Below are positions 2,821-50,144 of a DNA stretch of 64,000 nt, piece after piece (the first letter of the stretch is position 1; the number at the start of each line of letters is the position of its first letter). Position numbers and translations under genes: made by a program. Source of the stretch: Patescibacteria group bacterium. Lineage in GTDB: Bacteria; Patescibacteriota; Minisyncoccia; Phycocordibacterales; UBA918. Under the pieces are notes generated by a model that made no database searches, was not told the origin of the DNA, and saw nothing but the letters and a program-made list of their open reading frames with translations. The stretch lies in NCBI GenBank assembly GCA_019750255.1, contig JAIEOU010000009.1, forward strand, positions 5,497 to 69,496. The letters are read 5' to 3'.

Positions 2821-4095
2821 TTAATACTCCCGCAACGACACTTGAGCGTCGAGACGGCGAATCAGGTCCAGCACCACCGACACCACAATGAGTACCGCAG
2901 TACCACCAATCGCGAGCGCTGCCACACCGGTCGCGAGTTGCATACCGATTGGAAGAACTGCGACAAGGGCGAGGAAGGTCGCACCAACCAGGGTAAGACG
3001 AGTAATGAGCGCTCCGAGATACTCCACCGTGTGTGATCCAGGGCGAATACCGGGGATGTACGCACCGTTACGCTGAAGGTTCTTTGCGATACCGTCCGGA
3101 TCAAAGGTGACAGCGGTGTAGAAGTAGGTGAAGACGAATACTAGGAAGAAGTACGTCGCACCGTACCAAATTTGATTAGCTAAGAAAGCCTGCACTGCCT
3201 CATTGGCACCTCCGACCCAGGTGAGTGACGGAAACGCCGTGAGGATGTTGAGCACCATCTGCGGAAAGAGCAGGATGGAAAGTGCAAAGATAATTGGAAT
3301 AACGCCTGCCTGGTTAAGGCGTAGTGGCAAATATGATGAGCTGCCACCGTAGGTAGCGCCACCACGACTTTGCTTAGCGTAGGTGATTGGTACGGGACGT
3401 TCTGCTTCAGTCATAAACACTACAGCGTAAATGATACCGAGAGCAACGAGCCCAAAGCCGAGATAGAGTGGCAGCTGCGAAGGGTCATAGCTGAAGATGA
3501 GCTGACTCACAGTCGACGGGAGTGTCGCGACAATACCCGAAAAGATAATGATCGAGACACCATTTCCAATACCGTACTCGGTGATCAGTTCACCAATCCA
3601 CATGAGGAGCATCGAACCAGCGACAATGAGAACAATGTTCACGATGAAGTCGAAGGTCGAAAGTCCCGTCAGTACACCCTGACTCTGGAGGAGGGTAAGG
3701 AAACCGAAACCTTGGAGGATGGCGAGCGGAAGCGTGAGTAAGCGGCTATACTGCGTAAAGCGGGCTCGGCCAGCCTCACCCTCTTCAGTATAGAGACTCT
3801 TCAACTTCGTACTCATCACCGTGAGAAGTTGCATGATAATTGAGGCCGTAATAAACGGACCAACACCAAGCATTACAATCGAAAGGTTTGAAAGTCCACC
3901 GCCAGAGAAGATATTGAGGAGCCCCAGGAATTGATTATTGTCGAAGAATTGCTGGAGCACAGTCTGATCAACTCCAGGAATTGGAATGGTTGCAAGCGCA
4001 CGGAATACCACGAGGGCAGCCAATACGAAGAGAATACGGTTACGAAGAGCTGGTTCGGTAACGATGAGTTTGAGCTTGTGTACGAATGTATTCAT
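2821..4095 (-). CDS. secY: preprotein translocase subunit SecY
   Basis: 424-aa polytopic membrane protein with typical SecY sequence, downstream of rplO in the spc operon. Confidence 0.95.
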   Translation of the reverse strand: MNTFVHKLKLIVTEPALRNRILFVLAALVVFRALATIPIPGVDQTVLQQFFDNNQFLGLLNIFSGGGLSNLSIVMLGVGPFITASIIMQLLTVMSTKLKSLYTEEGEAGRARFTQYSRLLTLPLAILQGFGFLTLLQSQGVLTGLSTFDFIVNIVLIVAGSMLLMWIGELITEYGIGNGVSIIIFSGIVATLPSTVSQLIFSYDPSQLPLYLGFGLVALGIIYAVVFMTEAERPVPITYAKQSRGGATYGGSSSYLPLRLNQAGVIPIIFALSILLFPQMVLNILTAFPSLTWVGGANEAVQAFLANQIWYGATYFFLVFVFTYFYTAVTFDPDGIAKNLQRNGAYIPGIRPGSHTVEYLGALITRLTLVGATFLALVAVLPIGMQLATGVAALAIGGTAVLIVVSVVLDLIRRLDAQVSLREY

Positions 4096-4114
4096 AGACT
4101 AGGGACTATGCCGT

Positions 4115-4564
4115 CTATTTTACACTACCACCTGCCGCTTCAATCTTGGCCTTAGCTGCCGCCGACACCTCGCACCCCTCAACCACAAAGGCTTTGGTAA
4201 GCTCGCCAGTAGCGAGAATTTTCACCTTTGGGTTCTTCTTGCGGATCTGGCTAATCACGTTCGCTGCCACGAGGGACGCTGAAGTAATCACCATACCCTT
4301 TTCAAAGGTAGCCTCGATCACACCGAGGTTTACTACCGTTGGCTTTACCTTCTCGTTGTTAACCGTATCGGCACGGTTCTTGCCGTGACCACGGAGTTTT
4401 GGATACTTCTTGATGATATCGCGCATTTCTGGACGAGTACTGTTACCAGCACGCGCAGTCTGACCCTTATGGCCACGACCCGACATCTTGCCGCGCTTAC
4501 CACCACGACCGATGCGCTTCTCTGTCTTCTGCGGGGTTGCCCGCTTAAGTTCGTGTAGCTGCAT
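4115..4564 (-). CDS. rplO: 50S ribosomal protein L15
   Basis: MQLHELKRATPQKTEKRIGRGGKRGKMSGRGHKGQ: Gly/Arg-rich L15 N-terminus in the expected spc-operon position. Confidence 0.9.
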   Translation of the reverse strand: MQLHELKRATPQKTEKRIGRGGKRGKMSGRGHKGQTARAGNSTRPEMRDIIKKYPKLRGHGKNRADTVNNEKVKPTVVNLGVIEATFEKGMVITSASLVAANVISQIRKKNPKVKILATGELTKAFVVEGCEVSAAAKAKIEAAGGSVK

Positions 4565-4568
4565 ATAA

Positions 4569-5261
4569 TTACTTCTTTAAGAGTTTAAGCGCTTCGACGG
4601 CGGCGCGAGCATTGTTGAGCTTGTTCTTTGAACGAGAGAAAATCTTAGCGGTAACGTCCTTTACACCACCAAGTTCAAGTACGGTACGAACTGACGAACC
4701 GGCCACGAGTCCACGACCCGGCGCTGGCATAATCATCACTTCACTCGAGGCATACTTGGTATGCACGTCGTGTGGAATGTGACTGTCCTTATTCATCGGA
4801 ATCTGAATCATGTGCTTTTTAGCGTCACGCATCGCCTTGTCGATAGCGAGCTGGGTGTCACCGGCCTTGCCGATACCAACACCAACCTTGCCATTCTTGT
4901 CGCCAAGCACCATCGCTACTGAGAAACTGAACCGACGACCACCAGCCATAACACGGGTTACGCGACGGATACTGATGATCTTCTGGTCAAACTCAGGACG
5001 TGCGCGTTCGGGGCGAGCGGTGCGGCGCTGACGGCGCTCTCCGCCACCAGCTCCACCACGTCGGCCACCACCGGCTCCCGCGGTGCGGTTACCTGGACGG
5101 CGATCACGGAAACCTCGTCCTCCCTCGTCCGTAGCAGGAGCGCCTACAGTAACGTCGGCTCCCGCAGCGGGTGCATCGGTAGAAGGTGTCGCTTCCGACA
5201 CTTCTGGCTCTGGTACCACTGGGGTATCAGTTATAGCTTCCTGCTGCTTATCTTCACTCAT
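4569..5261 (-). CDS. rpsE: 30S ribosomal protein S5 with long low-complexity N-terminal extension
   Basis: Core RFSFSVAMVLGDKNGKVGVGIGKA is the S5 signature. About 110 aa of Ala/Gly/Arg-rich N-terminal tail. No L30 gene between S5 and L15, which is typical of CPR. Confidence 0.9.
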   Translation of the reverse strand: MSEDKQQEAITDTPVVPEPEVSEATPSTDAPAAGADVTVGAPATDEGGRGFRDRRPGNRTAGAGGGRRGGAGGGERRQRRTARPERARPEFDQKIISIRRVTRVMAGGRRFSFSVAMVLGDKNGKVGVGIGKAGDTQLAIDKAMRDAKKHMIQIPMNKDSHIPHDVHTKYASSEVMIMPAPGRGLVAGSSVRTVLELGGVKDVTAKIFSRSKNKLNNARAAVEALKLLKK

Positions 5262-6172: not shown

Positions 6173-6565
6173 TTACCAAATGATGAAGAGCTCCTCACCA
6201 CCGACCTGCTTTTCTTTAGCTTCCTCATTGGTGAGGATGCCAAGCGGGGTCGAAAGGATGAGATGTCCTTTACCAAACTTAACTTTGTGAATATTGGCGA
6301 CCTTGGTGTAGAGGCGACGACCAGGCTTGCTGATGCGCTTTACACCATTAATACGATGCGCGCCGCCGTTGTAGACGAGGGCAATCGAGAGCGTCTTTCC
6401 GACCTTCTTTCCCTGCTCCTTTACTTCACCGACATATCCAGCAGCCGAGAGCTTTAGAGCTACTGCCTGCTTGAGCTTACTGTACGGGAGTTCAACCTGC
6501 TTCTTTCCGACCATACCAGCATTCTTAAGCTGAATGATGAGGTCGCCGATAGCGTCGCTTACCAT
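6173..6565 (-). CDS. rpsH: 30S ribosomal protein S8
   Basis: 130 aa; [16 protein letters not shown]... with an S8-type C-terminus. Confidence 0.9.
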
Positions 6566-6744
6566 GATGACTTCTTAATGCCTGGTATATGTCCTTCGTG
6601 AGCAAGCTCGCGGAAGCAGATGCGGCAGATATCAAAATCGCGCATATACCCTCGCTTACGTGCACACAACTTGCAGCGTCGTACGACGCGGCAAGCAAAC
6701 TTCGGCGTACGCTGTGAGCGTACGATGATTGATGTTCGTGCCAC
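6559..6744 (-). CDS. rpsN: 30S ribosomal protein S14, zinc-binding type Z
   Basis: 61 aa; GTG start; C..C....C..C zinc ribbon ([10 protein letters not shown]...CRICFRE). Confidence 0.85.
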
Positions 6745-6868
6745 TGTATTTAGTTTTAGGGGTGGAGCCGTATCATGGAGAATCCATGACGTGCGCCGTA
6801 ATAATTCCGCATCAGAAACGGTGTTTCTAAGCGTACGGGTGGGTACCTTTTTAAGGAGAAATAAGAAG

Positions 6869-6950
6869 CACGTAGTGCGACTATATTTTCCTTATGCAAT
6901 CGCCTAAGCAGATTCGACCTTTAAGGGGAGAATCTGGTTGCAGCGACTTG
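6869..6950 (+). repeat. structured repeat element, copy A
   Basis: acgtagtgcgacTATATTTTccttaTGCAAtcgcctaa, then hairpin GCAGATTCGACCtttaaggggaGAATCTG, then gTTGCAgcgacttg. Inner and outer stems; 5' flank shared with copy C. Confidence 0.6.
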
Positions 6951-7029
6951 TGAGAGGCAGAGACCCCGACCGCGTAGGCGCAATACTACTAGAATAAGGT
7001 TATTTGTCAAGGATAAATACAGAGGCCGT

Positions 7030-7105
7030 AGGCCGACAATATTTTCCTTGTGCAATCGCCTAACTGTTTTCGACCCCAGAAGGAGAAAACAGTTGCGGCG
7101 ACTTG
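7030..7105 (+). repeat. structured repeat element, copy B (tandem to A)
   Basis: Same architecture as copy A, but the inner stem is CTGTTTTC...GAAAACAG. Every stem position differs from A while pairing is preserved (covariation). Loop cores TTCGACC and GGAGAA are conserved. Confidence 0.6.
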
Positions 7106-7453
7106 CCTGGGATATAAAAATAAGGAGGCCACCATTGCTTTCATCCGTCCTTGCGAGCCTCAGCGAAGCAATCCAAACAATAATCCTAACCCAAAGGCCA
7201 GGCCTTTGTAGCCCGAACCTAGGAAACCCTACTACGGAGGCCAGGTCTCATAGTAGGAACACGAGGCTATAATCCGAGAAATTCTTTCCCAGCACACATA
7301 AAACCCTAGTCTGTTCAATACTTTTCAAAGCGCCAGGAGTTCTCATTGGCGTGAGACGTAAGTACGTTTATACGAAACGCCTCTAAGAGCCCTAGTCCAG
7401 GCTAGCAATGACAGATATACTTTCTATAACGTTACTATCTAAATAAAAATTCT

Positions 7454-8107
7454 ATGGGTTATAAAGTCAAATTTACTGTACTTGCTACACTACTCCTATT
7501 TGCTGTAAACATAAGCCACGCAAGTAGTCATTCAGAAAATTTCTCGTTTGAAGTTAGCAGTAAAAAGGTCATGTCTGGATCACCAGTACTGCTCCAATGG
7601 GTCGCCCCAGAAGGTTCAATCTGTAATCTTAATGGTACAACGATTGAAAATAGGTACGTTGTTCGTCAAGACTATTATTTGACTGAGAACCCTATAGTGG
7701 ATACGCGATACACCCTTACGTGTAGCAACGGCTTGATTACAAGCAAAATTGTACAGAAAGTGAACGTGGTGCCCGAAAGGAAAAAATCACCCACTGTTAC
7801 CACATCCATCACAGACACAGTGATTTCATATGGTCCAGGAGGTAGGAATAAATCTATTACCGCGAATCTCAACTGGACTTCAACGAATGTAGAATCCTGC
7901 ACACTTAACCAATACTTTAATAACTTTAGGACGGTAAATTTTCTGGAAGGGAGCTCCACACTAGACACTCAAGGTGCACTGGGTATGAGAGTAAGCAATG
8001 GTTCTTTTAGTTCACCAACTGAACGAACGTATCTCATAACTTGCCAAAATAAAAATGGAGTTTCAGCAGGTTCTGAGGTGGTATTTAACTCATCAATTGA
8101 TCTCTAA
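7454..8107 (+). CDS. secreted tandem-repeat protein (signal peptide, two ~90-aa beta-rich repeats)
   Basis: N-terminal signal peptide (LATLLLFAVNISHASS). Internal duplication L.W....C.LN...TY.LTC.N..G appears twice. Markedly AT-rich compared with the surrounding DNA. Confidence 0.6.
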   Translation: MGYKVKFTVLATLLLFAVNISHASSHSENFSFEVSSKKVMSGSPVLLQWVAPEGSICNLNGTTIENRYVVRQDYYLTENPIVDTRYTLTCSNGLITSKIVQKVNVVPERKKSPTVTTSITDTVISYGPGGRNKSITANLNWTSTNVESCTLNQYFNNFRTVNFLEGSSTLDTQGALGMRVSNGSFSSPTERTYLITCQNKNGVSAGSEVVFNSSIDL

Positions 8108-8139
8108 TTCCCTACTCCAAAGAATGGGACTTCGTAGTC

Positions 8140-8409
8140 CTACCTGTAGACATCCTTTCTGTGTTTGATTGTTAATACAATCAGTACCACAATGCCTCCC
8201 TTACCATCGTAGGTAAAAACTACTCGATAGTCACCAATTCGGTATCGGTACTTCCCCGATAACCTCCCTTGCAGAGCTTTGGCCCGAGCCAGCGGTTCAG
8301 CTTGAGAAGCATTATCAGCTATCTTAAGTACAATTCTCTTAGCAATTAAGGGACTCAGCTTTTTTAACTGCTGAAGAGCATCATCTGAGTAGATGACCGT
8401 AGCGCTCAT
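8140..8409 (-). CDS. RelE/ParE-family type II toxin
   Basis: 89 aa; YRYRIGDYRVVFTYDG....IVVLIVLTIKHRKDVY matches the RelE/ParE signature. Confidence 0.8.
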   Translation of the reverse strand: MSATVIYSDDALQQLKKLSPLIAKRIVLKIADNASQAEPLARAKALQGRLSGKYRYRIGDYRVVFTYDGKGGIVVLIVLTIKHRKDVYR

Positions 8410-8414
8410 TGAGA

Positions 8415-8663
8415 TTATGTAATACCAAGTTTTTTAAACACTTCTTCTTGGGTGTGGAAATTACCCCGAACAACATTGGCTTCAGCTTTTACCACATCAG
8501 CAACAAAGGTATCGAGGTACTCATCGTCAACAAACGCTTTAATTTCAAACAACGGCTTGTTTCGATTCATAACAATATAACGAACATCACTCTTTCGGGC
8601 ACGCTTAGCATAATCAGAAATATTCTGACGAAAATCTTTTACTCCGATAAATTTAGTATTCAT
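8415..8663 (-). CDS. Phd/YefM-family antitoxin
   Basis: 82 aa, directly upstream of and abutting the toxin gene. N-terminus MNTKFIGVKDFRQNISDYAKRAR...YIVMNRNKPLFEI is Phd/YefM-like. Confidence 0.7.
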   Translation of the reverse strand: MNTKFIGVKDFRQNISDYAKRARKSDVRYIVMNRNKPLFEIKAFVDDEYLDTFVADVVKAEANVVRGNFHTQEEVFKKLGIT

Positions 8664-8841
8664 ATATTTAAAGTGTACACTTAAGTGTACACTTTTGTCA
8701 AGTATTTATTGAACAGTAGTTTCGAACCGAATCCAGCCCCTTCTCGTGTCTACACAGACTGAGTGCACTTCACCCGCTCCTGCAGCAATTCTTTCAGGCA
8801 GTAACAATCATTGACATCATTAGTCACAGTTGCGTTAATTA

Positions 8842-10137
8842 ATGTATATGCACTTCGGTCTACGGACGTCTGAAGTTACTCCCCAGCGAGATATTCGCTC
8901 TGAGCCTGATTCACCGTCCTCACTTAAGACACTACTCTCTGCGCCTGGCCCACTCTCCATCATTACACTTGTAGAAACCTGTCTTCGAGAGGCACACCAC
9001 CAACACGCTTCCGACATTCATATCGAACCAAACGAACACGCCATCCGTGTTCGTTTTCGTATTGACGGCATGCTCTGCGACATCGTCACCCTTCCACGCA
9101 CTATACATTCGGAAATAATTTCTCGTATTAAAGTACTCTCCCATCTGCGGACCGACGAGCACCAAGCGGCACAGGACGGCCGCTTTCGCGCAACTTTTGC
9201 CACCACTGCGGTTGATATACGCGTTTCGATTGCCCCGACCCATCATGGGGAAAATGCCGTACTGAGACTACTTACTGAACACGCCACCCCGCGCACACTT
9301 AGCACACTCGGACTACATGAGAACGATCAAGCAAAAATTGAGCGGGCGGTCGCCTGCCAGAGCGGCATGATACTGGCAACCGGGCCAACCGGATCGGGAA
9401 AGACCTCAACGTTATATACCCTTCTCAAGTTACTCAATCACTCAGAAATCTCTATCGTCACAATTGAAGACCCTATTGAGTACGCAGTAGCTGGGGTTAC
9501 CCAAATGCAGATCAACCCGAGGTCTAACCTCACTTTCGCCAATGGGCTGCGTACCGTCTTGCGCCAGGACCCCAACGTTATTATGGTTGGTGAAATTCGT
9601 GATGCCGAAACCGCTAACATCGCTATTAATACGGCTCTCACCGGACACCTCCTCCTCTCCACCCTCCATACGAATGACGCTGCCACCACACTACCTCGAC
9701 TGCTCGATATGGGGGTAGATGCCTATCTGGTAGCGTCAACAATAAACATTGCCATCGGCCAACGCCTTGTGAGAAAAATCTGCCTACACTGCCGCACCAA
9801 GCACACGCCCACTGAAGCCGAGACACGCCACCTTAAATTGTCCTCACACACAACAACTGAGAAGTACGAAAACGTACCAAACAAATTTTTTCACGGCGCT
9901 GGCTGCCCTGCCTGCAACCACTCGGGCTATGCCGGGCGAATTGGCATATACGAAGTCCTCGTCGTGTCACCTACCATTCGCGAAGCAATCTTACAACGAG
10001 CTTCAGCTGCGACCATACATACCATCGCTCAAAGTGAAGGCCTTACCTCAATGTTTGAAGATGGCTTACGAAAAGCCGCGAAGGGTGACACAACGATAGC
10101 GGAAGTCTTGCGCGTGGTTGGGACACCAATTTCCTAA
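8842..10137 (+). CDS. pilB: type IV pilus/T2SS assembly ATPase, GspE/PilB family, short form lacking the N1 domain
   Basis: Walker A GPTGSGKTST, Asp box VGEIRD, His box ALTGHLLLSTLHTN and tetracysteine motif CLHC...CPAC. True start codon uncertain. Confidence 0.85.
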   Translation: MYMHFGLRTSEVTPQRDIRSEPDSPSSLKTLLSAPGPLSIITLVETCLREAHHQHASDIHIEPNEHAIRVRFRIDGMLCDIVTLPRTIHSEIISRIKVLSHLRTDEHQAAQDGRFRATFATTAVDIRVSIAPTHHGENAVLRLLTEHATPRTLSTLGLHENDQAKIERAVACQSGMILATGPTGSGKTSTLYTLLKLLNHSEISIVTIEDPIEYAVAGVTQMQINPRSNLTFANGLRTVLRQDPNVIMVGEIRDAETANIAINTALTGHLLLSTLHTNDAATTLPRLLDMGVDAYLVASTINIAIGQRLVRKICLHCRTKHTPTEAETRHLKLSSHTTTEKYENVPNKFFHGAGCPACNHSGYAGRIGIYEVLVVSPTIREAILQRASAATIHTIAQSEGLTSMFEDGLRKAAKGDTTIAEVLRVVGTPIS

Positions 10138-10145
10138 AGCCCTAC

Positions 10146-11327
10146 ATGAAATCTCTTTTCATAATGATATGGAACTTTGTCCGGCCCCATGACCAGCCTC
10201 GGCCGGCGCCAGGAAATACCCCACCGCCCGGACCACCACCCACCGTTACTTCAGCACCAAGTTCCATACTTTTTGTTCGCTTCACCACCAAAGACCGGGT
10301 ACTCTTTGCCCAGCGCTTATCTTTTCTCCTGCGAGCGAATGTAAGTTTAGTTGAAAGTCTCACGCTCATTCATAATCAAACCAAATCACAGCGTCGACAA
10401 CATCTCTACGCTACCGTCATCTCAGATATTCAAGCTGGACACACGCTTTCAAACAGCCTCCGTAAGTACCAATCGTTATTTGGCGAGTTTACCATCAACA
10501 TAATCAACGTTGGTGAGCAGGTCGGTGCACTCTCAGAAAATCTCGCCTATCTGGCCGATGCGCTCGCTAAAAAACACGCACTGGGGCGCAAAGTACGCAG
10601 CGCCCTCATTTATCCTCTATTCATTTCAGTCACCACGCTCGGGGTAACGGGATTTCTCGTGATGTATCTATTCCCAAAAATCATGCCAATTTTTGTTTCA
10701 CTTTCGATTGATCTACCACCTACCACCCGAGCTCTCCTCGCACTTAGTGAGTTTTTACGCGCACACGGTGGTGCGACAGTTGTACTCGGATTATGTATCT
10801 GTGTAACTTTTCTTGTGCTACGCACCAAGATTACCTCTTTGCGATTTGCTACCGACCACCTCATACTGACCACTCCGGTCGCCGGCCCCATTGTCCGTTT
10901 GTATAATTGTGCGAACTTTTGTCGGACGCTCGCACTTTGTCTTCACTCTGGTATCAGTCTTTCTGAAGCCCTTACCATTACCGCACAGACGACTCCTAAC
11001 CTCGTCTTCAAACGGGCATACGGGGCGTTCGCGGAGTCTGTGGCACGTGGTGAAAAAATCTCTAGGGCGATGTCGTCGTATACTTCACTCTTTCCCGAAC
11101 TGCTTCCACAACTACTGCTAATTGGAGAAACAACCGGTACTCTATCTAAAACCCTAACGTATGTCACGGAACTGTACGATACAGAGGTTGATGAAGTAAC
11201 AAAGAATCTCTCAAGCACCATTGAACCGGTTCTCCTTCTCACCATGGGAGTGTTTATTGGGTTGATTGCGGTTTCCGTAATCGCACCAATCTACGAGGTT
11301 ACTCAGCACCTTAACCACTCTTACTAA
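10146..11327 (+). CDS. pilC: type IV pilus platform protein, GspF/PilC family
   Basis: 393-aa polytopic protein with two GspF repeats (KDRVLFAQRLSFLLRANVSLVESL...). Pro-rich N-terminus, so the start is uncertain. Confidence 0.8.
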   Translation: MKSLFIMIWNFVRPHDQPRPAPGNTPPPGPPPTVTSAPSSILFVRFTTKDRVLFAQRLSFLLRANVSLVESLTLIHNQTKSQRRQHLYATVISDIQAGHTLSNSLRKYQSLFGEFTINIINVGEQVGALSENLAYLADALAKKHALGRKVRSALIYPLFISVTTLGVTGFLVMYLFPKIMPIFVSLSIDLPPTTRALLALSEFLRAHGGATVVLGLCICVTFLVLRTKITSLRFATDHLILTTPVAGPIVRLYNCANFCRTLALCLHSGISLSEALTITAQTTPNLVFKRAYGAFAESVARGEKISRAMSSYTSLFPELLPQLLLIGETTGTLSKTLTYVTELYDTEVDEVTKNLSSTIEPVLLLTMGVFIGLIAVSVIAPIYEVTQHLNHSY

Positions 11328-11341
11328 TTCCCCAAGCAATC

Positions 11342-11794
11342 ATGGCCACTACTAGCGGATTTACTCTCATTGAACTGCTCATCGTCATGAGCCTGCTTGC
11401 GGTGATTGCAGCGTTTAGTGCCCCTTTAAGCTTAACGAGTTTGTCACACTCTACCCTGCTTCAAGAGCGTGATGTGTTAGTTTCTCTGGTCCTCATGAAC
11501 GCAAGATCTGCTGCACTAGTGAATAGAGACCGCTCGGCTCAGGGTGTTTTTATAGATCAAACAAATAGACAGTACGTGCTTTTTAATGGCAGTACTTACA
11601 CGCAAGGAGCGCCGAGTAACCGCCTCATACCCTTTATTAGCCAATCGGTTGCGGTCAGTAACAGTGGTGGCGATACCATTATTTTTGCCCCTCACACCGG
11701 AACCATTATCAAGGGTGCCGGTACCATCAGCGTCGGGAGCGGTATTGCTACTCATACTGTTACCACAAACGACGTCGGGATGATTGACTGGTAA
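11342..11794 (+). CDS. type IV pilin-like protein (class III signal peptide)
   Basis: MATTSG|FTLIELLIVMSLLAVIAAF: canonical G-F-T-L-I-E prepilin cleavage and methylation motif. Confidence 0.8.
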   Translation: MATTSGFTLIELLIVMSLLAVIAAFSAPLSLTSLSHSTLLQERDVLVSLVLMNARSAALVNRDRSAQGVFIDQTNRQYVLFNGSTYTQGAPSNRLIPFISQSVAVSNSGGDTIIFAPHTGTIIKGAGTISVGSGIATHTVTTNDVGMIDW

Positions 11795-11797
11795 CGT

Positions 11798-13357
11798 ATG
11801 CATACGAACCCTACCTACAGCGAAGTTTCACCCTCGACGCACGCTGCCGGCTTTTCTACCATTGAAATACTTTTATCTTTTACCGTCGGCACACTGTTTC
11901 TCACCGCTGCCCTCATGCTGGTAGTGAGTGGACCTGGGCTAAATACCCGGTATTCACTAGACAGCAGTAACACCCTTGTGCTCGATGCGGCGCTTGATAC
12001 TCTTGGACTCTCTCTACTCACCCAAAGCCTTACCTCTACCACCGCTGCCCTACAAACTCAGTGGCACCGATCGATTTCTGGTTCAATTCGAATCGACCAA
12101 GGCTATGCAAAAAACCCACCATACATAACTGACATATCACCATGCCTTAAGGTTGTCACTAATGAAATAAGTTGGCTCCTGGGTGGTGGGCGTGTCCGTA
12201 ACAGCAGCCTCAGTGGAGTAGTGAGTAACGAACAGATTACTGGGGCTCTTGGAGGCGACTGCGATAGTGTACCGACGAGCGCAGACTGGTTTGCCCCACA
12301 GGTGCTTAGTCGGCACTCAATCACGTCCGGCACTCCGGTAGCACTCGACGTTCTAGGCGGGGCGGTCTACCTAAGTGACGCTGCCGGCATGTTACACATA
12401 ATTAACTTACAAGGTAATGCTATTAATGAGAACGGTGATTTTATTACTCCCCCGTTTGCAGCTGGTGCTACTTTGTTTGATGTTGATGTGGCAGACCACG
12501 TGGACCCCACAACCGGGGACCGTCACCGGTACGCATACACCGTACGGAACAGCACCTCAGACCAGTTGCAAGTAATTGACGTAGACAATCACACCGCACC
12601 CACGAGCACACCAGGAATGATAGTTACGTTTGGTGGCGCTAATCCTCCTCGCGGCAGCTTTCCCCAGGGATGGAGGCTCACCTACTATGACCGCATGGTC
12701 TACGCGCTCTCGCGTGAGACCGCCGGCTTTGAGTTTCATATTTTCGACGTCGGCGACCCTACTCGTCCCCGCGGGGTCGGACCCGGTTTCGAGGTAAACG
12801 GTACCGCAAACGACATCGCAGTTACTGATGTTTTTTTACCAACCACAACACAGCGAATAGCTATCTTGGGAACCGAACGTTCGGCACACGAAATTATGGT
12901 ACTGAACGTATCAAACCCACTCACACCGACGCTCATCACGAGCCTCGACCTACCCACGACGTTTGATGTGCGCTCCCTCTACCTTATTGGTAATCGTCTC
13001 TACGTCGGCCGCAATCGTACAACCGGCGGACCTGAATTGCTTGTATTTGAAATGACCTACAGCTCGACCTTACCCCTACAGTTAACTCTCACGCAACTTG
13101 GTACGGGAGTCGAAATTGGCGCCGATGTCACGAGCATCAAAGTAAGTGGGGTACAGGCATTTATTACCACCGCCAACGCAAATGACGCCTTCCAAATTTT
13201 TACTATAGAAAAGCCGACAGAAAACATAACCAGGATTGATACAGCCCCACTGCGACTCAGCGGCACTTTTCCGGCCGGGCTCGATTATTCCTCCCCATAC
13301 GTCTTTGTAGTAAGTAATGCCCTTCAGTCACTGCAGGTTATTCAGAGCTCACCATAA
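11798..13357 (+). CDS. large pilin-like protein fused to an LVIVD-repeat beta-propeller (candidate pilus tip/adhesin)
   Basis: N-terminus AAG|FSTIEILLSFTVGTLFL is a prepilin motif. C-terminal 350 aa carry repeated hydrophobic-x-(V/I)-x-(D/N)-(V/I)-(S/D/G)-(N/D)-P-x-x-P units (EIMVLNVSNPLTP, HIFDVGDPTRP, QVIDVDNHTAP, FQIFTIEKPTE), typical of LVIVD repeats. Confidence 0.6.
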   Translation: MHTNPTYSEVSPSTHAAGFSTIEILLSFTVGTLFLTAALMLVVSGPGLNTRYSLDSSNTLVLDAALDTLGLSLLTQSLTSTTAALQTQWHRSISGSIRIDQGYAKNPPYITDISPCLKVVTNEISWLLGGGRVRNSSLSGVVSNEQITGALGGDCDSVPTSADWFAPQVLSRHSITSGTPVALDVLGGAVYLSDAAGMLHIINLQGNAINENGDFITPPFAAGATLFDVDVADHVDPTTGDRHRYAYTVRNSTSDQLQVIDVDNHTAPTSTPGMIVTFGGANPPRGSFPQGWRLTYYDRMVYALSRETAGFEFHIFDVGDPTRPRGVGPGFEVNGTANDIAVTDVFLPTTTQRIAILGTERSAHEIMVLNVSNPLTPTLITSLDLPTTFDVRSLYLIGNRLYVGRNRTTGGPELLVFEMTYSSTLPLQLTLTQLGTGVEIGADVTSIKVSGVQAFITTANANDAFQIFTIEKPTENITRIDTAPLRLSGTFPAGLDYSSPYVFVVSNALQSLQVIQSSP

Positions 13358-13362
13358 TACGT

Positions 13363-13899
13363 ATGCCACTTCATCACGATCATCAACAAGATGGAGTTAC
13401 TCTCCTTGAAGCCATCATTTACGTCGCTCTCTTTAGTGCTCTCACTACCGGTGTTTTGATGAGTGTCTATCCCCTCTTTACCGGAGCCGCTCGTCATACC
13501 GAACTTATTGCAACCCATAGTGACATAGTGTTTATTTTGAAAAAAATTGAACAAACACTTAGCGACAGTATCACCACACCATCCTCCACAATTCTTGTAC
13601 CGCCTTCCGGCCAAAGCGCCGAAACACTCGCTATACAAAGCACGACTGGCAGCATATTTACTTTTACTATTGATACAGCCCCGTCTGGCTGCACACCGCC
13701 GCGTCTCTGCGCCACCCTTACCCTCAAGACCAATAGCGGCCCGGCATTATCGCTTAATAGCAGGAGGATTCACATTAGTGATTTTACGGTGACTCACACT
13801 GAGCAAGGACTCGATTGCTCGAGTGTTCGCTGTCTCGACATATCATTTGCAGCTAACGGACAAGCGGTCGGACCACTCCGTTACTATCTCCGTTTCTAG
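13363..13899 (+). CDS. minor pilin-like protein
   Basis: QQDG|VTLLEAIIYVALFSAL: prepilin N-terminus with Glu at +5. Confidence 0.65.
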   Translation: MPLHHDHQQDGVTLLEAIIYVALFSALTTGVLMSVYPLFTGAARHTELIATHSDIVFILKKIEQTLSDSITTPSSTILVPPSGQSAETLAIQSTTGSIFTFTIDTAPSGCTPPRLCATLTLKTNSGPALSLNSRRIHISDFTVTHTEQGLDCSSVRCLDISFAANGQAVGPLRYYLRF

Positions 13900-13901
13900 T
13901 T

Positions 13902-14303
13902 ATGAAAAATCATTTCGCACCCCGAGGATTCATAGCCCTTCTAACCATGATAATAATTTCATCGGTGTTGCTCGTCACTACTCTGTCTCTAGCACAATTT
14001 GGCCTTACCCATCGCTATTTCATACTTGATCTTGAACATAAGTCCGTGAGTACTCATTTAGCTGAGGCGTGTGTCCACATCGCTCGCGTCCTCATCATGA
14101 ATAGCCAGAGTGATAGCCTGACCTTTCCCCACCCCTTTCCCGTTCACCAAGAGTTCTGCACGATCCATTTAATAACCCGAGCGGGCACGACCAGCGCCGT
14201 AGAAACAGAGGGAACGCATGAAGGTATATCGACACACTACTCCGTCACCGTCGACAACAACAACGGTAGCTTTCTCTCCTGGGAGGAGATAATTAACCCC
14301 TAG
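13902..14303 (+). CDS. pilin-like hydrophobic-N-terminus protein (no Glu+5)
   Basis: APRG|FIALLTMIIISSVLLV is pilin-like but lacks the +5 Glu. Operon context only. Confidence 0.4.
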   Translation: MKNHFAPRGFIALLTMIIISSVLLVTTLSLAQFGLTHRYFILDLEHKSVSTHLAEACVHIARVLIMNSQSDSLTFPHPFPVHQEFCTIHLITRAGTTSAVETEGTHEGISTHYSVTVDNNNGSFLSWEEIINP

Positions 14304-14410
14304 CTATAAACAGAACTATTAATCCAAAAAATTTTAAGCACCCCCTACCGTATATAATTTAGATAACGGAAAGATGCTTCACGCAACTATACTTATCTAT
14401 AATTTATTGT

Positions 14411-14899
14411 ATGAAAAATCACACACAGAGGTCCACCCAAGGATTTACGTTGATTGAGATTCTTATCGTTATTGCAATCTTGGCTGTGCTGGCCGCCATC
14501 GTACTGGTCGCCATTAATCCAGCCCGCCAATTTCGTCAGGCCAATAATGCCCAACGCGTGAGTAACGTTAATGCTCTATTAAATGCCGTTAGCCAATACA
14601 CCGTCGACGAGAAGGGCGCCATTCCGTCCGAAATTGAAGCTGATGCTGACGAGATTAATGGCACGAGTGGTAGCGACCACGCTGATCTCTGCGCACTACT
14701 AGTACCAAAGTATCTCCCCGCCCTACCGGCCGACCCAAGCAAGAGTGACCAAAGTATTACCGAAGACAAGTGCGGTAGCGCATACTCAACCGGCTATGAA
14801 ATTAAAGCTGAGAACGGTCGCGTCGTCGTCTCGGCACCGCTCACCGAGGATGAGGATACCGGGGCGATAGCGAGTGACATCATTAGCGTAACGCGCTAA
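14411..14899 (+). CDS. pilA: type IVa major pilin candidate
   Basis: STQG|FTLIEILIVIAILAVLAAIVLVAI: textbook T4a pilin N-terminus; 162 aa. Last gene before the terminator. Confidence 0.8.
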   Translation: MKNHTQRSTQGFTLIEILIVIAILAVLAAIVLVAINPARQFRQANNAQRVSNVNALLNAVSQYTVDEKGAIPSEIEADADEINGTSGSDHADLCALLVPKYLPALPADPSKSDQSITEDKCGSAYSTGYEIKAENGRVVVSAPLTEDEDTGAIASDIISVTR

Positions 14900-14967
14900 T
14901 AGGACCAACCGCGTAACTCGCCCCACGGCTGAGACGCCGGTCTCTACATCCGCATCGTCAGCTAACA

Positions 14968-14998
14968 CGAAAAAACACCCATTTGGGTGTTTTTTCGT
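14968..14998. terminator. bidirectional intrinsic terminator
   Basis: aaaaaACACCCatttGGGTGTtttttt. Confidence 0.75.
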
Positions 14999-15011
14999 AA
15001 CCAGAAGACAG

Positions 15012-15323
15012 CTACACAAAAAAGGAATATAGCACCTCTGCTTTTGAAACCCGTTCAAGACACTCCTCCTTCATCTGCTTGTGCTTTTGATTAACCTGCC
15101 TATCCGTGTTGGCTGGTAGACACTCACCCACCATTTCACCCAACACATAGGTAGTGCCATCAATAATGAAACTAAACACCGCCTCATGCACCAACCCCTC
15201 TTCACGTAAAGATGCTTCAGCTTCAGTACGAAATTGTGTTGTGAGTTCGACACACCACTCTCTCCAAGCTGCCTCTTTACCTGATTTCACCCTGAATACA
15301 TTGGCCACGGTTTTACTACTCAT
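15012..15323 (-). CDS. hypothetical protein (DUF6176-like pattern, weak)
   Basis: 103-aa ORF flanked by terminators on both sides. VFRVKSGKEAAWREW...EG...E.VF is loosely DUF6176-like. Confidence 0.4.
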   Translation of the reverse strand: MSSKTVANVFRVKSGKEAAWREWCVELTTQFRTEAEASLREEGLVHEAVFSFIIDGTTYVLGEMVGECLPANTDRQVNQKHKQMKEECLERVSKAEVLYSFFV

Positions 15324-15375
15324 ATATCTTTACCACCCATCATATGTCTTACCAAATAAAACTCAATGTGCATGA

Positions 15376-15412
15376 TAACAAAACCGCCACCCTTTCGGGT
15401 GGCGGTTTGTTG
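15376..15412 (-). terminator. intrinsic terminator closing the rpsS-rplE unit
   Basis: On the minus strand: CAAACCGCCACCCgaaaGGGTGGCGGTTTTGTT. Lies downstream of rplE. Confidence 0.7.
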
Positions 15413-15482
15413 TTGCTGCTTCTTCAAGCCTGATTCAAAATTTTCAGATACCAGGAGCCAAGGATGAGCAGAAATAAGGAAC

Positions 15483-15551
15483 ACGTAGTGTGACTATATT
15501 TTGCTGAAACAAAAGCTTGGTTGTATTCGACTTAATTAAGAGAATAGAACC
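15483..15551 (+). repeat. structured repeat element, copy C (right flank of the island)
   Basis: acgtagtgtgacTATATTTTgc matches the copy A flank at 20 of 22 positions. Hairpin GGTTGTATTCGACttaattaagaGAATAGAACC has conserved TTCGAC and GAGAAT with a new covarying base stem. Confidence 0.55.
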
Positions 15552-15645
15552 GTAGCTTTTGAGCGAGGACAGGAGGCGTACATATTGTACGATAACTGTC
15601 CGAGCGAAGTATGCGACAAAGTATCTGGAGATTTTGGGCAGGCGA

Positions 15646-24026: not shown

Positions 24027-27000
24027 TTATTGCTGGGTGCCGAGCAGCAGGCGTGTCTGCGGTCCCACGATGCCAAGGGCATCAAGGGCATGGGCAGCCT
24101 GGAATGATCGTACCGCAGCTTCGGTAACCGGTCCGAAATAACCGGTAGCCTCCCCACTAAAGTAGCCAAGACGCTTGAGGGCTGCTTGCAGGACACGGAC
24201 CTGTTCGCCTGAAGAGCGAAGTGAGAGACGGTCAGATATCGTGAAGCGTATGTCGTTGATTCCTAATACAGATCCACTCGCAGGAACATTCGGAAAACGA
24301 GCCGGTGTAAAATCAGTGAGCACCTTGTTAACGAACGTTAACGTCTCACCATTCTTGAATGTCAGTACTACGTTCGAGCCGACCTGAGTCAACGCTGCCC
24401 TTAGCTCTGTCCAGTTATTAAAGGCTCCACTTGAAAGGATTATTTCGTCCGGACGAGTGCTTCCTGTAGCAAAACCGATAATAGTGTCTGATCCATTACC
24501 TGATGAAACTGTAATTTCTTCAGCCTGGTTTCTCGCAACAATCGTATCGTTTCCACCCATACCATTAATCCTGAACCTTGTATCAGATGTATTTTGTGAG
24601 CCAACCAAAATATTTGCACTCGCATTGCCTTCGATGGTTAAGTTAGACGTCGCGTCTCCGCCATAGATAATAGTATCGATGGCGCTTGGAAGCGTGTACA
24701 CTCCCCAGCCGTGACGGGTAATTACGGCAGTGTTAGCGCTTACATCCACTCCCTCTATGACTTCAGAACCTCCGACATAGAACACATCGTTACCGCCACC
24801 ACTAACGAACGTAGCTCCTCCACCAAATTCGACAGCTTCAAACACATCGTTCGCGGTAGTACCAACAAGACGTGGCACCCAGGCACCGCGCTCCGCAGCA
24901 ATCGTGACGGTTGGCAGCGTGAGGGGATTGAGCAGGTTCTGACTTGTCCCTGCCAAGGTAATGGTGTAGCTGGTGGGAGTTACAATAGTTGGTTCTACAC
25001 TCGTTCGCGGGTCGCTTACTTGTTTCCAAGCACCATTACTATATTCATACCAGACGCTTGTGTTGTTGAGCGTATAGAGCTTTCCGCCATTAAGCACATG
25101 AAGTTCAACACCTCCACCTCCGACAGCCGATGCTCCGTTAAGAAGAACCAGATTACCGCCGGGTACTGTCTGGGTGCTAAACGACCACGTTCCTGCGGCT
25201 GTAGTTAGACTACCACCACTGGACACTGAAATGACTGCTCCATCTGGACTCAATCCAGGAGTAGTAGGTGGCGGGAGTGAGGTTTCTGGGTTTATCGTTC
25301 GACTCCACGTCGCAGCAGCTACATCCCGGAGATACCAGACACCCTTACTGTTGCGTGCGTACAATTTTCCACCATTGAGTACCACCATCCGATTCCCGGT
25401 CAACAGAGCGGATTTACCATTCAGGTTAATCCTCCAACCACCACTTATTCTACTAGTACCGAACGACCACGTTCCTTCAGGAGTTATCAGGGTAGAACGT
25501 GAACCTCCACCGACCGACGTACCATCAGAACTGATTGATACGGTTGAGGTTGGTGCTGTGCTGGCTAACTTGAAGTAACACGCCTTAACAACGCCTGGCA
25601 ACGGATCACCAAACACTGCATTGGTGCAGGCGGTACTGGCTGTTATTGAGCGGTAATTGAAGGCTCCGTTAGCACCATAAGCAACACTTGCGGTACCGGC
25701 AAACGAACAGGTACCTCCCTCCTCTGCACACTTGGTATACCCCGTAGGACCGCCAGCATCTGCTTGTGCTACTGGTGCAGATACAGCTACTACAACAGAC
25801 TTCTGTGCGGAGCCGCCAGTGCCAGTGCAGGTGAGTGTATAGGTGGTTGTAGTTTCTGGAGAAAGGCTTTGTGAACCAGCAGTCGCTCCAGCGGTAAAGC
25901 CGGTACCGGTACACGCAGTGGCGTTCGCGCTTGACCAAGTCAGCGTTGTAGTTTGACCCCTAACAATACTAGAGGAAGTGAGACTCAGCGTTACGGTCGG
26001 TACCAAGGTTGGAATTGGGGATGGAGTAGGTGTGGATGCACTACTTTTTGTCATGTACATATCAACACTGTAACCATCAAGCCCAGAATCATAATCGACA
26101 CTCCACCAATTGTACCCACCAGCACTGATCGGACCAGAGCGAAGCGTTCCAAGGGCTCCAAAAGGCTGCGTGCCGAGGATGGTACCGTTAGCGGTCGCAC
26201 GGACATTCGTACCAGTGGTTAGACTAATTCGGTCACCAGTAATGAAACCTAGTGCTGGCAGAGCGGGGAGTGGAGCTGGTTCTGGAATTGGAGTTGTCGG
26301 TACAGAAATCATTCCTGAGCGGCGTGGAGTAACTCTAAACTGAAAATCTTTTTGATACGACTCAACATCAGTAAATTTTGGTTTGAGGGCCAACATTTTG
26401 TCGTAGGTCTGCAAGGCTTCACTAGACCCCGTGACATTATAGACGTTTGCGAGAGACATAAGACCACTTGGACCGTAGGTGCCTTCCCCACCATCGTACT
26501 CCACGTTTAAGTTCGAGATTCCTAACCACGTAGTAACCGGCTTACCATTAGCGTACATGGCAAAACCGTAGTTAAAGCCCACTAATGGATTGTTCATTTT
26601 ATTGTAGCGGTTGATAACGTAGTTAGACATTATCCCGACCACCTGTTTTGCTTTGGCACTACCACGATTTGCAGACGCAGCCAAAGAACTCAACAGATAA
26701 TCTTGTTGCCACGGCTTAACGGCCGGAGGAAAATCACCGTCTACACCCGTGAAGTAGCCACGCGCCTCACCTTGTGCAGGACCCTCGGCGGCGGCTCGAC
26801 TAATTAAGTGGTCAAGATTATTGTTTAGAATTTTTTGCCAATAATTTTTAGCTGTCGTTCCATCAGGATTAGCCCACGCTGCCTCATCAATTTGTCGAAG
26901 ATCCCAGCCAGCACCTCTAACCTGGTTCATATCATGAACAACCAAACCAAGTCCATCTTGCCGAGGCGCATTCCACCCAGCCATCACTGTCCAAGATGCT

Positions 27001-28253: not shown

Positions 28254-28667
28254 AATACTTTTTAATTCGCGATAATGAATTAAGTATACTCCATAAAAAA
28301 AACGCCATGTTTGTTTCCCACAATTAGTAGCATTCACCACTACGACACATACAAATTATTTGGTAAAGATTATACAAAATTGATTGACCCCCCGGTAAGG
28401 GGTACGGTCGGAGTAAGAGCAGCGGCTAGCGCTCCGATATTTTTCTGTAAGAACATTTCCTTTCTCATACTAAAGAATATCGAGACCATGTGTACCGCGC
28501 ACCATGGCTTGGAGTGGTTACTCACTCGATGGAGATGCTGGGCGCAGTCAGGCAACAAAATTTTTGTGGCTCAGCTCGCATTAAAGCAGCCAGGATTACC
28601 ACCGTCTTGACTTCAAATAAAGACCTCCCCAATCGGGCTCGTGTGGCACCATCGGCTACTCGTCCAT

Positions 28668-47512: not shown

Positions 47513-47586
47513 TACATTCTAATACACGACAAAGCGGTAGCGTGATAGGATACGTAAACATTTAGCCACGTAAATACGAGACACTT

Positions 47587-48165: not shown

Positions 48166-48180
48166 CATTTTGACTGATGT

Positions 48181-48228
48181 AAAAGCAGCCGTGTAACTCA
48201 CCTTACACGGCTGCTTTTCTTTTTTCTA
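48181..48228. terminator. bidirectional intrinsic terminator
   Basis: aaaAGCAGCCGTGTAActcaccTTACACGGCTGCTtttcttttttc. Confidence 0.8.
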
Positions 48229-49810: not shown

Positions 49811-50144
49811 GTAAGCGCAAGGCCGGGTATGTTGGTCGGCATCTCACCGACTGGTACTAAGGGGAAGGCGTCTCAGTCCCACGAGACCTGCGTGTTGATA
49901 TCGCGATCAGGGTCAAAGACACCCTCGATGTTCTTTTGTTCTGAATCAAAATTGTTCCGAGCGGACATATTTGGCGCTCCAGCGGGTTGTCTCACAAAGC
50001 ACGTTTGATACATCTGCGTCGCCCGGTGGCGGCGTCGACGACAGCCTGTTCTTAGTGCTGCTTTCAGACTACAAGCCGCACCGCTATCCGTCAACTGATC
50101 CCCACTGCGCAAGCAAAAAACCACCCCGCAGGATGGCTCGTAGT

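Follow-up and report, generated by a model that had tools for sequence, protein, structure and literature searches.

Most Patescibacteria are uncultivated, and their way of finding and holding hosts is largely obscure; to our knowledge, genetic tests of CPR pili have so far been confined to Saccharibacteria. The window analyzed here, i.e., the whole 64,000-nucleotide stretch of DNA, raises the question of whether a pilin that carries a beta-propeller could serve as an attachment device of such a cell and, if so, where in the filament it would reside. The open reading frame concerned (11798..13357, plus strand) encodes 519 aa, and its extent agrees with the first-pass annotation, which had proposed the fusion of a type IV pilin with an LVIVD-repeat propeller. 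The source record has the locus tag K2Q16_03545. The fusion was borne out, as a pilin-like N-terminus is joined to an LVIVD-family beta-propeller.

The leader peptide (11798..11851, plus strand; residues 1-18, MHTNPTYSEVSPSTHAAG|F) ends with Gly18, and the prepilin motif G|FSTIEILL at residues 18-26 has Gly, Phe, and Glu at positions -1, +1, and +5, respectively, ahead of a stretch of about 24 hydrophobic residues; the predicted cleavage site reads AAG|FSTIEILLSFTVGTLFLTAALMLVV, a class III signal of type IV pilins. Among 40 aligned full-length homologs, Glu23 never varies and the conservation of Gly18 amounts to at least 90%, so the motif, which was correctly recognized before, is under selection and no chance match. 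Cleavage is predicted after Gly18. Apart from this residue, the leader is variable among the homologs, and that of the propeller pilin contains no basic residue. The N_methyl and IV_pilin_GFxxxE HMMs (PF07963 and TIGR02532) did not match the window protein at an E value of ≤1, and N_methyl was matched by 8 of the 40 homologs. The pilin module (11852..12295, plus strand; residues 19-166) has the pilin fold, in which a long alpha-helix at the N-terminus packs against an antiparallel beta-sheet, and in the subclade of the window protein a flexible insertion of about 12 residues is located between alpha1N and alpha1C. A PDB sequence search with the single window protein returned nothing, and the search with the family profile yielded weak matches to pilin N-termini, a marginal YncE match at an E value of 0.2, and nothing else. 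The linker (approximately residues 156-166) is short, conserved (GGDCD, W164, and P167), and confidently modeled; the pTM of the full-length model is 0.82, and the propeller appears to be rigidly coupled to the pilin head. With a pilin module, a short linker, and a grafted domain, the protein fits the modular type IV pilins sensu Raynaud et al. 2021.

The grafted domain is a seven-bladed LVIVD-family beta-propeller (12296..13357, plus strand; residues 167-519 plus the stop codon). Its 353 C-terminal residues comprise seven repeat units, which are arranged in tandem, are about 45-60 residues long, form the blades of the propeller, and each close with a hydrophobic strand (LHIINL 199, LQVIDV 257, FHIFDV 313, IMVLNV 366, LLVFEM 414, FQIFTI 465, and LQVIQ 512). 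The first-pass annotation had counted at least four LVIVD-type repeats with a (V/I)(S/D)NP..P turn; the repeats are indeed present, and there are seven of them, but the exact turn is found only once (VSNPLTP), next to two near variants (VGDPTRP and VDNHTAP). The check that it had suggested, a search of residues 170-519 against Pfam LVIVD (PF08309), failed: no match was obtained for the whole protein at an E value of ≤1 or for the propeller and two blade-pair fragments at an E value of ≤10, and the window protein, which has no Pfam match of any kind, does not reach the PF08309 gathering threshold of 20.2 bits. This is the very outcome that the annotation had named as refuting its proposal, and the family assignment was nevertheless retained via the full-length homologs. 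PF08309 is matched at an E value of ≤0.01 by 27 of the 40 homologs, and 8 of the 10 homologs with listed scores exceed the 20.2-bit cutoff (e.g., P0030, 86.4 bits; P0041, 60.7; P0031, 56.1; P0017, 35.6; and P0002, the nearest relative, 21.2). The alignments of the window protein with P0030 (E value, 2.5e-43) and P0041 (2.0e-23) each span 97% of the query. Judged from these comparisons, the LVIVD label of the window protein stands solely through its homologs, i.e., at the level of the family. The propeller is uniformly acidic in charge and more conserved across lineages than the pilin head, with blade 3 as the most conserved part. The positions conserved in the family include G286-W292, R306-H314, and P321 of blade 3 as well as Q256 and R405. 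Such conservation across lineages with presumably different hosts is unlike that of a fast-evolving, host-specific adhesin and would fit a shared ligand or a structural function.

The genomic neighborhood is a tight cassette of seven genes with conservation across Patescibacteria, and the propeller pilin takes the second of its four minor-pilin slots. All genes are located on the plus strand in the order ATPase, platform protein, four minor pilins, and major pilin, with intergenic distances of 2-14 nt and a gap of 107 nt before the major pilin only. The cassette starts with a PilB/GspE/ComGA-type assembly ATPase of the short form (8842..10137, 431 aa; Pfam T2SSE, 404 bits), for which the NCBIfam scores of 493 bits (GspE) and 454 bits (PilB) are both under the equivalog cutoffs. 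The gene of the PilC/GspF/ComGB-type platform protein (10146..11327, 393 aa; Pfam T2SSF, 165 bits in two stretches) begins 8 nt past the ATPase gene, and its place in the gene order is the same in L001 and L003. Slot 1 is occupied by a GspH/ComGD-like minor pilin (11342..11794, 150 aa, G|FTLIE; N_methyl, 27 bits; TIGR02532, 28.6 bits); among its 15 orthologs, 12 match GspH (best, 4.4e-9) and 10 match ComGD, all under the curated cutoffs, and the PDB profile search found type IV pilins. For slot 2, the fold is the sole evidence, and the comparison of the pilin module gave 7.9 for GspK and 6.6-6.9 for GspI. The minor pilin of slot 3 (13363..13899, 178 aa, G|VTLLE) has Glu5 and a sub-threshold N_methyl score of 17 bits; Glu at +5 is invariant in its orthologs (consensus GFTLxExxIYIALF), and its NCBIfam matches are mixed (ComGE, GspH, ComGF, and GspJ). 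Slot 4 harbors a Glu5-less pilin-like protein (13902..14303, 133 aa, RG|FIALL) without a match in Pfam, NCBIfam, or the PDB sequences; all 20 of 20 orthologs share an invariant Gly-1 and an invariant Cys57/Cys86 pair and never have Glu at +5. PDB and NCBIfam profiles gave no clear placement of slots 3 and 4 in the J and K families, and the hhalign comparison of the propeller pilin's own pilin module with slot 4 (60% probability) was limited to the helix. The region 11342-14303 contains four tandem minor-pilin genes, one of them without Glu5, and the propeller pilin shares its locus with further pilins, a platform protein, and an assembly ATPase. The major pilin candidate (14411..14899, 162 aa, G|FTLIEILIVIAILAVLA...INPARQF; N_methyl, 34.8 bits; TIGR02532, 32.5 bits; GspG-like, 35.6 bits) is strongly conserved between loci in its N-terminal half.

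A Peptidase_A24 prepilin peptidase, PilT, and PilMNO were not found among the window ORFs scanned, with the peptidase scan covering 19 further window ORFs. No secretin is present, and a T2SS identity was rejected on the basis of this absence and of a presumably monoderm cell. Scanning the cassette gave promoters (10 found, 8.5 expected) and terminators (5 found, 5.8 expected) in numbers no different from chance, and the inserted region had no tRNA or Rfam match.

The same gene order is present in L001 and L003 at 26-32% identity, and synteny extends over about 40 GTDB genomes, in which the propeller pilin is single copy and syntenic with the core minor pilins. The ATPase, counted as a Walker A-bearing ORF upstream of the propeller pilin, was found in 37/39 cases, slot 1 in 35/44, slot 3, counted as a canonical pilin motif downstream of the propeller pilin, in 37/41, and the Glu5-less slot 4 in 33/41. 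The propeller-pilin family comprises about 40 species representatives from many CPR lineages and 2,227 cluster representatives at an E value of ≤1e-30 (clusters at 50% identity). Orthologous fusions in other CPR pilus loci, for which a search had been recommended, are thus numerous, and the gene does belong to a CPR pilus locus. The notion of an unusual architecture had to be abandoned in view of these cluster representatives, about 30 catalogued N_methyl+LVIVD proteins, and a CPR propeller-pilin that has already been tied to host binding. The family is very large, conserved, and so far undescribed, and the N_methyl+LVIVD architecture itself is already catalogued.

Which role would such a protein have? 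We interpret the 519-aa protein as a minor type IV pilin of modular build and, by analogy with known filaments, consider it fairly probable that it is part of a tip complex and that its exposed propeller gives the pilus its attachment specificity. The hydrophobic helix would insert the prepilin into the membrane, and a prepilin peptidase encoded elsewhere would cleave it after Gly18. The H-like pilin, the propeller pilin, the slot-3 pilin, and the Glu5-less slot-4 protein may then form a priming complex on the platform protein, with the slot-4 protein as the topmost subunit and Glu23 of the propeller pilin pairing with the N-terminus of the subunit above. Polymerization of the 162-aa major pilin beneath this complex by the ATPase would bring it to the distal tip and expose the propeller of about 350 residues, which could bind to other cells or surfaces, the ligand probably being a conserved glycan or protein of the envelope. 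Four core minor pilins are known to form a tip complex with a Glu5-less cap subunit (PMC10191384), and the Com tip complex is functionalized for ligand capture (PMC12153270). Since the cap is Glu5-less according to this rule, the slot-4 protein is the candidate for this position, and the propeller pilin, which keeps Glu5 and has the conserved Glu5-less subunit 13902-14303 as its neighbor, probably belongs to the tip complex without being the cap that the first-pass annotation had considered. Its use in adhesion is plausible by analogy with TM7x PilX2, the PilB and PilC proteins of S. sanguinis, and PilY1. The failure of the N_methyl and LVIVD HMMs, the leader without a basic residue, the lack of a peptidase, PilT, and PilMNO in the window ORFs tested, and the conservation pattern of the propeller are points against this best explanation. 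It is a tentative and rather doubtful extension that the LVIVD-propeller pilin represents the ligand-recognition tip module of a minimal, Com-like type IV filament and that CPR bacteria of the Parcubacteria/Paceibacteria type use this filament as their main attachment organelle.

The strongest competing explanation, which we nevertheless regard as unlikely, is a structural or priming role, with the propeller as a conserved plug or stabilizer that starts or caps the filament and binds no external ligand. A parallel is known from Myxococcus, where PilY1 serves the priming of type IVa pili. The conservation of the propeller, and of blade 3 above all, is expected of an intramolecular or inter-subunit interface, and the rigid, conserved linker and the membership of a single-copy gene in the syntenic minor-pilin core of about 40 genomes point in the same direction. 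However, Com pili and T2SS pseudopili assemble from small H-I-J-K subunits without any propeller (PMC10191384, PMC12153270), TM7x makes pili without its propeller pilin (PMC12206443), and an exposed domain of 350 residues would be costly for a reduced genome as a mere plug.

Quite improbable is a minor pilin that decorates the shaft, i.e., one that enters the filament here and there, as non-core minor pilins do, and presents its propeller laterally and not at the tip. The filament rise is roughly 10 A according to established pilus geometry, and a propeller of about 350 residues that is rigid on its head would be hard to fit between filament neighbors, even though the flexible insertion between alpha1N and alpha1C in the window subclade could let the head swing out. 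The retained Glu5, as in shaft subunits, and the location in the filament body that Raynaud et al. 2021 allow given a flexible linker (PMC8179133) have to be weighed against the position of the gene within the core four-pilin block and not apart from it. Less probable again is a Com-like competence pilus with a propeller that helps to capture extracellular DNA for ComEC-dependent import, as the uniformly acidic charge disfavors DNA binding. The least credible explanation, that of no filament subunit but a pilin-like membrane anchor of a surface LVIVD propeller or a secretion-type pseudopilin, would accommodate the missed N_methyl HMMs, the leader devoid of basic residues, the prepilin peptidase not seen in the window, and the general occurrence of LVIVD and choice-of-anchor B proteins on cell surfaces, but it is countered by the invariant Glu5 and near-invariant Gly-1, which belong specifically to filament assembly and to cleavage by the peptidase, by the genuine fold of the pilin head, by the strict synteny with assembly ATPase, platform protein, and major pilin, and by the absence of a secretin.

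With respect to the wider relevance, the family places a defined, soluble-looking domain of 350 residues at a predictable position of the pilus. If this domain is a ligand-binding tip, the recombinant propeller would provide a handle on the host receptors of uncultivated Parcubacteria, and the strong conservation of blade 3 would mark where a ligand shared by many hosts is bound. Should the propeller have a structural role only, its value would be limited to annotation. Modular minor pilins are already established as adhesins, and the window protein extends known biology and overturns nothing.

The closest precedents in domain composition are the approximately 30 proteins with IPR012902+IPR013211 (N_methyl+LVIVD) and 1 to 13 LVIVD matches in Dataset S1 of Raynaud et al. 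2021, who singled out an 860-residue protein of Candidatus Falkowbacteria for a "motif of unknown function" (PMC8179133). They have the same domain architecture as the window protein and represent a catalogue entry alone. The family far exceeds the 30 proteins listed, and the window protein would escape this survey because neither HMM detects it. The modular pilins PilB and PilC of Streptococcus sanguinis carry vWA and lectin domains, respectively (PMC8179133; PMC9934059), whereas the graft in the window is a seven-bladed LVIVD-family propeller, and the machine in the window has no adjacent PilMNO and PilT genes. LVIVD-repeat proteins are known from archaeal and bacterial cell surfaces, and these LVIVD/choice-of-anchor B proteins (PF08309; TIGR04312; Adindla et al. 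2004, PMC2447325) share their repeat family with the homologs of the window protein. They are anchored by sorting signals or S-layer association, the window protein by its pilin module, and the LVIVD copy in the window is too diverged for the HMM.

Among tip proteins, PilY1/PilC of diderm type IVa pili likewise combines a seven-bladed propeller with four core minor pilins and has roles in adhesion and priming. It is, however, a non-pilin docked on minor pilins with a propeller of another family (IPR008707), whereas the propeller in the window is a covalent part of the pilin; a PilY1/PilC-type tip adhesin was rejected, as the window protein lacks a PilY1-family Pfam match and has a pilin N-terminus. 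The likeness in sequence to the T2SS tip pseudopilins GspI and GspK (PDB 3ci0, 2ret, and 5bw0) is limited to the N-terminal helix; GspK has an inserted alpha-domain and no Glu5, and GspI is a bare subunit of about 100 aa.

A CPR counterpart is PilX2 of Nanosynbacter lyticus TM7x (Saccharibacteria T4P-2), a proposed tip adhesin, the deletion of which reduced host binding from 10.6% to 4.6% while pili were still made (Grossman et al., ISME J 2025, PMC12206443). Both are CPR minor pilin-like proteins with a C-terminal seven-bladed propeller in a multi-pilin gene block, which for PilX2 (about 500-580 aa) comprises five pilin genes. Homology was rejected (BLASTP E value, 0.85; hhalign probability, 3%, N-terminal helix only), and the precedent therefore serves as an analogy only. 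For the slot-4 family, neither the comparison with the N-terminus of PilX2 nor that with a 477-aa Glu5-less protein of the window was significant (hhalign probabilities of 8% and below 1%). The PilX2-type protein in L050 has an RCC1 propeller (164 bits), starts with KDG|YSLVL without Glu5, and occupies the fourth slot adjoining the major pilin, whereas the window protein, an LVIVD-family member, has Glu5 and lies in the second slot; RCC1 was found only in the former. The two are independent fusions onto different subunits. If the LVIVD propeller is the ligand module of the tip, this comparison would show a convergence of different propeller families on different tip subunits, and propeller-tipped pili would have arisen independently at least three times: as the docked non-pilin PilY1 in diderms, as RCC1 on a Glu5-less cap subunit in Saccharibacteria, and as LVIVD on the Glu5-bearing, GspI-like subunit of the window.

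The open reading frame at 11798-13357 (+) of the window encodes a protein of 519 aa whose N-terminus, MHTNPTYSEVSPSTHAAG/FSTIEILLSFTVGTLFLTAALMLVV (slashes mark the -1/+1 boundary), carries a class III (prepilin) signal, i.e., Gly at -1, Phe at +1 and Glu at +5, followed by a hydrophobic helix. A database search retrieved 42 relatives, nearly all of 445-531 aa and with a query coverage of 95-99%, whose names, where given, refer to Patescibacteria or "pseudopilin PulG". Among the 40 that were aligned, all share Glu23 and at least 90% share Gly18, whereas the leader is otherwise variable, which argues for a selected rather than accidental motif. The prepilin signal proposed in the first-pass annotation is hence borne out.

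The C-terminal 353 residues comprise seven repeat units with the pattern a.dv.v.g..ayv.....g.l.v.dv..P..P. The repeats, four of which had been recognized before, are therefore real, and the terminal turn then quoted for them occurs in one exact copy and two near variants. Nevertheless, the Pfam scan of the whole protein returned no matches at an E value of ≤1, for pilin or LVIVD alike, and nothing even at ≤10 for the propeller alone and for blade pairs. NCBIfam recognized it neither as a pilin nor as an LVIVD protein, its sole signal being a subthreshold match (17 bits) to a "choice-of-anchor B" model. The LVIVD profile, by whose result the first-pass annotation had let its own proposal stand or fall, thus failed to match the window protein itself. 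The assignment is rescued by the family: PF08309 is matched by 27 of the 40 homologs (N_methyl by 8), with scores above the curated cutoff of 20.2 bits for several of them, including P0030 (86.4), P0041 (60.7), P0031 (56.1), P0017 (35.6) and P0002 (21.2). P0002 is the nearest relative (52% identity), and homology to P0030 extends over the full length (E value of 2.5e-43). Judged from its sequence relatives, the window protein can be classified as a diverged member of a family of LVIVD-propeller pilins.

The AlphaFold2 model based on the family alignment (pLDDT 84, pTM 0.82) consists of a disordered N-terminal leader, two helices (residues 21-42 and 68-87), a five-stranded sheet (residues 98-143) followed by a short helix, and a propeller (residues 167-517) with about 27 strands arranged in seven four-stranded blades. 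The expected N-terminal pilin helix and β-propeller are both reproduced, and the homolog matches and the model together show that the proposed fusion of a pilin and an LVIVD-family propeller was right. A low-confidence segment between the helices (about residues 43-65) includes a Gly/Pro-containing insertion of ~12 residues, SGPGLNTRYSLD (window 11924-11962, about residues 43-55), which separates the hydrophobic α1N from α1C, is restricted to the window's subclade (P0002-P0014, P0031, P0036) and could serve as a spacer or hinge. The protein has just two cysteines, C116 and C155, both conserved and both within the pilin module. Conservation is also seen in the linker (GGDCD...W164..P167), and the model is confident there, which together with the high whole-chain pTM suggests that the propeller would be held in a fixed orientation to the pilin head.

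The propeller pilin is encoded by the fourth gene of a seven-gene plus-strand cassette with spacings of 2-14 nt, apart from 107 nt before the last gene. It is preceded by genes for a T2SSE ATPase (8842-10137), a T2SSF platform protein (10146-11327) and a 150-aa pilin (G/FTLIE; 11342-11794) and followed by those for a 178-aa pilin (G/VTLLE; 13363-13899), a 133-aa protein without Glu5 (RG/FIALL; 13902-14303) and a 162-aa pilin (14411-14899), whose N-terminal half is very conserved and which is likely the major pilin. This order is kept around homologs of just 26-32% identity. A scan of GTDB species representatives yielded 42 loci with the family, every one from Patescibacteria, namely, Giovannoni-, Zambryski-, Kaiser-, Lipton-, Taylor-, Sung- and Nomurabacteria, Paceibacteria and MAGs labeled Saccharibacteria, so that the orthologous fusions to be sought in other CPR pilus loci do exist. 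According to approximate, regex-based counts, an ATPase is present upstream of the propeller pilin in 37/39 loci, a canonical pilin directly upstream in 35/44 and directly downstream in 37/41, and a Glu5-less protein next in 33/41. With an ATPase, a platform protein, five pilins and no other adjacent component, the set of parts corresponds to a Com-type minimal machine, but the major pilin gene comes last instead of third. A prepilin peptidase, PilT and PilMNO were not found among the window ORFs scanned.

The spc ribosomal-protein operon, normally contiguous, is interrupted between rpsN (S14, 6559-6744) and rplE (L5, 15646-16182) by a region (6745-15645) that contains the cassette, on the opposite strand, as well as genes for a 217-aa signal-peptide protein (7454-8107), a RelE toxin (8140-8409) with an adjoining antitoxin-sized ORF (8415-8663), and a 103-aa ORF. 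In other genomes the cassette is found elsewhere, e.g., near ribonucleotide reductase, and both the insertion and the differing location suggest that the pilus block has moved. A noncoding 72-nt direct repeat (6848-6919 and 7004-7075; 76% identity, 156-nt spacing) without a tRNA or Rfam match is located just past rpsN, on the border of the inserted block.

Assembly of type 4 filaments is primed by a complex of the four core minor pilins, termed H-I-J-K or ComGD-GG, which reaches the filament tip with a Glu5-less subunit as its cap; in each subunit, Glu5 pairs with the N-terminus of the one above it (Pelicic 2023, PMC10191384). The four genes ahead of the likely major pilin (slots 1-4) match this pattern, the first being H-like and the last Glu5-less. 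Slot-1 orthologs lean toward GspH (12/15) and ComGD (10/15), albeit below curated cutoffs; for slots 3 and 4, sequence profiles gave no family assignment. The slot-4 protein represents a conserved pilin-like family (G/F-I-A-L-[I, M or L]) without a Pfam, NCBIfam or PDB match, and in 20 aligned orthologs Gly-1 and a Cys pair are invariant and Glu never occurs at +5. With its GspI/GspK-like head, its retained Glu5 and its place in the second ("I") slot, the propeller pilin is best regarded as part of the tip complex, as envisaged, but probably not as the cap, for which the slot-4 protein is the better candidate. In a Minisyncoccia genome (L013, 7992-11936), slot 4 is filled by a protein of 1,314 aa that bears vWA and SpaA-like domains; adhesive modules are thus grafted onto different tip subunits in different lineages.

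For Streptococcus sanguinis PilB, it has been argued that a bulky domain fixed rigidly on the pilin head should be tolerated only at the tip (PMC8179133). By analogy, a propeller displayed there would plausibly act as an adhesin. The main rival is a purely structural or priming role, since conservation of the propeller, chiefly of blade 3 (mean column identity of 0.66 versus 0.42 for the pilin sheet), is unusually high for an adhesin specific to one host. DNA capture would fit the Com-like parts list and the presence of ComEC (Competence and DUF4131 domains; 48203-49810) and RecJ (50890-52719) in the window, but the propeller is acidic in 40/40 members (net charge of -1 to -48, median pI of 4.8), whereas known DNA-binding surfaces of pilins are electropositive (PMC12153270). 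Decoration of the shaft and a non-filament anchor role of the pilin N-terminus are less likely.

The DNA-uptake and -processing genes, including one for a metallo-β-lactamase protein separate from ComEC (46625-47512), are clustered at 46625-52719 (-), closer to a second pilus locus (55205-62017, -) than to the propeller-pilin cassette. This locus encodes PilB with an MshEN domain (60230-62017), PilC (58994-60223), a modular 579-aa pilin (RG/FSMVE; 57251-58990) bearing CarboxypepD_reg and SpaA-like domains, a pilin of 204 aa (56635-57249) and a 477-aa protein (55205-56638) that has no family match and whose start (GG/YLLVL) lacks Glu5. A 1,437-aa protein (24027-28340, -), whose sole recognized domain is a C-terminal PG_binding_1 (residues 1377-1430), may be a further host-interaction factor. 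Weak cohesin (25.8 bits) and dockerin-like matches, unusual in a CPR genome, were obtained for a 239-aa protein (37919-38638, +).

The architecture had been called unusual, which is overstated. In their InterPro survey of N_methyl proteins with extra domains, Raynaud et al. (2021) listed about 30 proteins with IPR013211, the LVIVD repeat, after IPR012902 (Dataset S1) and presented an 860-residue Falkowbacteria example with a motif of unknown function; LVIVD pilins were not discussed in the literature searched, and the architecture is thus catalogued yet unstudied. When 1.84 billion cluster representatives were searched exhaustively with a profile, 2,227 of them matched at an E value of ≤1e-30, and about 135 of the best 150 are full-length, single-stretch matches of 450-560 aa. 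Among P0048, P0081, P0106 and P0128 are longer variants: those of about 800 aa carry added Ig-like (Big_3) regions behind the propeller, and one of 1,998 aa has a pilin N-terminus and 11 LVIVD stretches, which imply several putative propellers on one pilin. The window protein is a diverged addition to the modular minor pilins, and its family is common among CPR.

The closest precedent in CPR is Nanosynbacter lyticus TM7x (Saccharibacteria), which makes two pili and whose minor pilin PilX2, with a heptabladed RCC1 propeller, is required for normal host binding (10.6% reduced to 4.6%), while filaments still form without it (Grossman et al., ISME J 2025, PMC12206443). Two pilus systems are also encoded in the window organism. 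With the genome-specific part of a knockout primer of that study, a TM7x-type locus (L050) was retrieved from metagenomes, with the order PilZ2, PilV2, PilW2, a 576-aa PilX2-type protein (2917-4647) and PilA2. The PilX2-type protein is a clear RCC1 protein (164 bits) that starts with KDG/YSLVLIVLM, i.e., with Gly-1 and a hydrophobic helix but without Glu5, and hence resembles a cap-type (GspK/ComGG-like) subunit. This start may explain why no PilD signal peptide was found for PilX2 (PMC12206443). No similarity of the PilX2-type protein to the window protein or its family was apparent (BLASTP E value of 0.85, hhalign probability of 3%), which indicates independent fusions. The PilX2-type N-terminus has no significant homology to the slot-4 family either, so that the assignment to different subunits is based on Glu5 status and gene order: TM7x carries an RCC1 propeller on a Glu5-less fourth subunit, whereas the window organism carries an LVIVD propeller on a Glu5-bearing second one.
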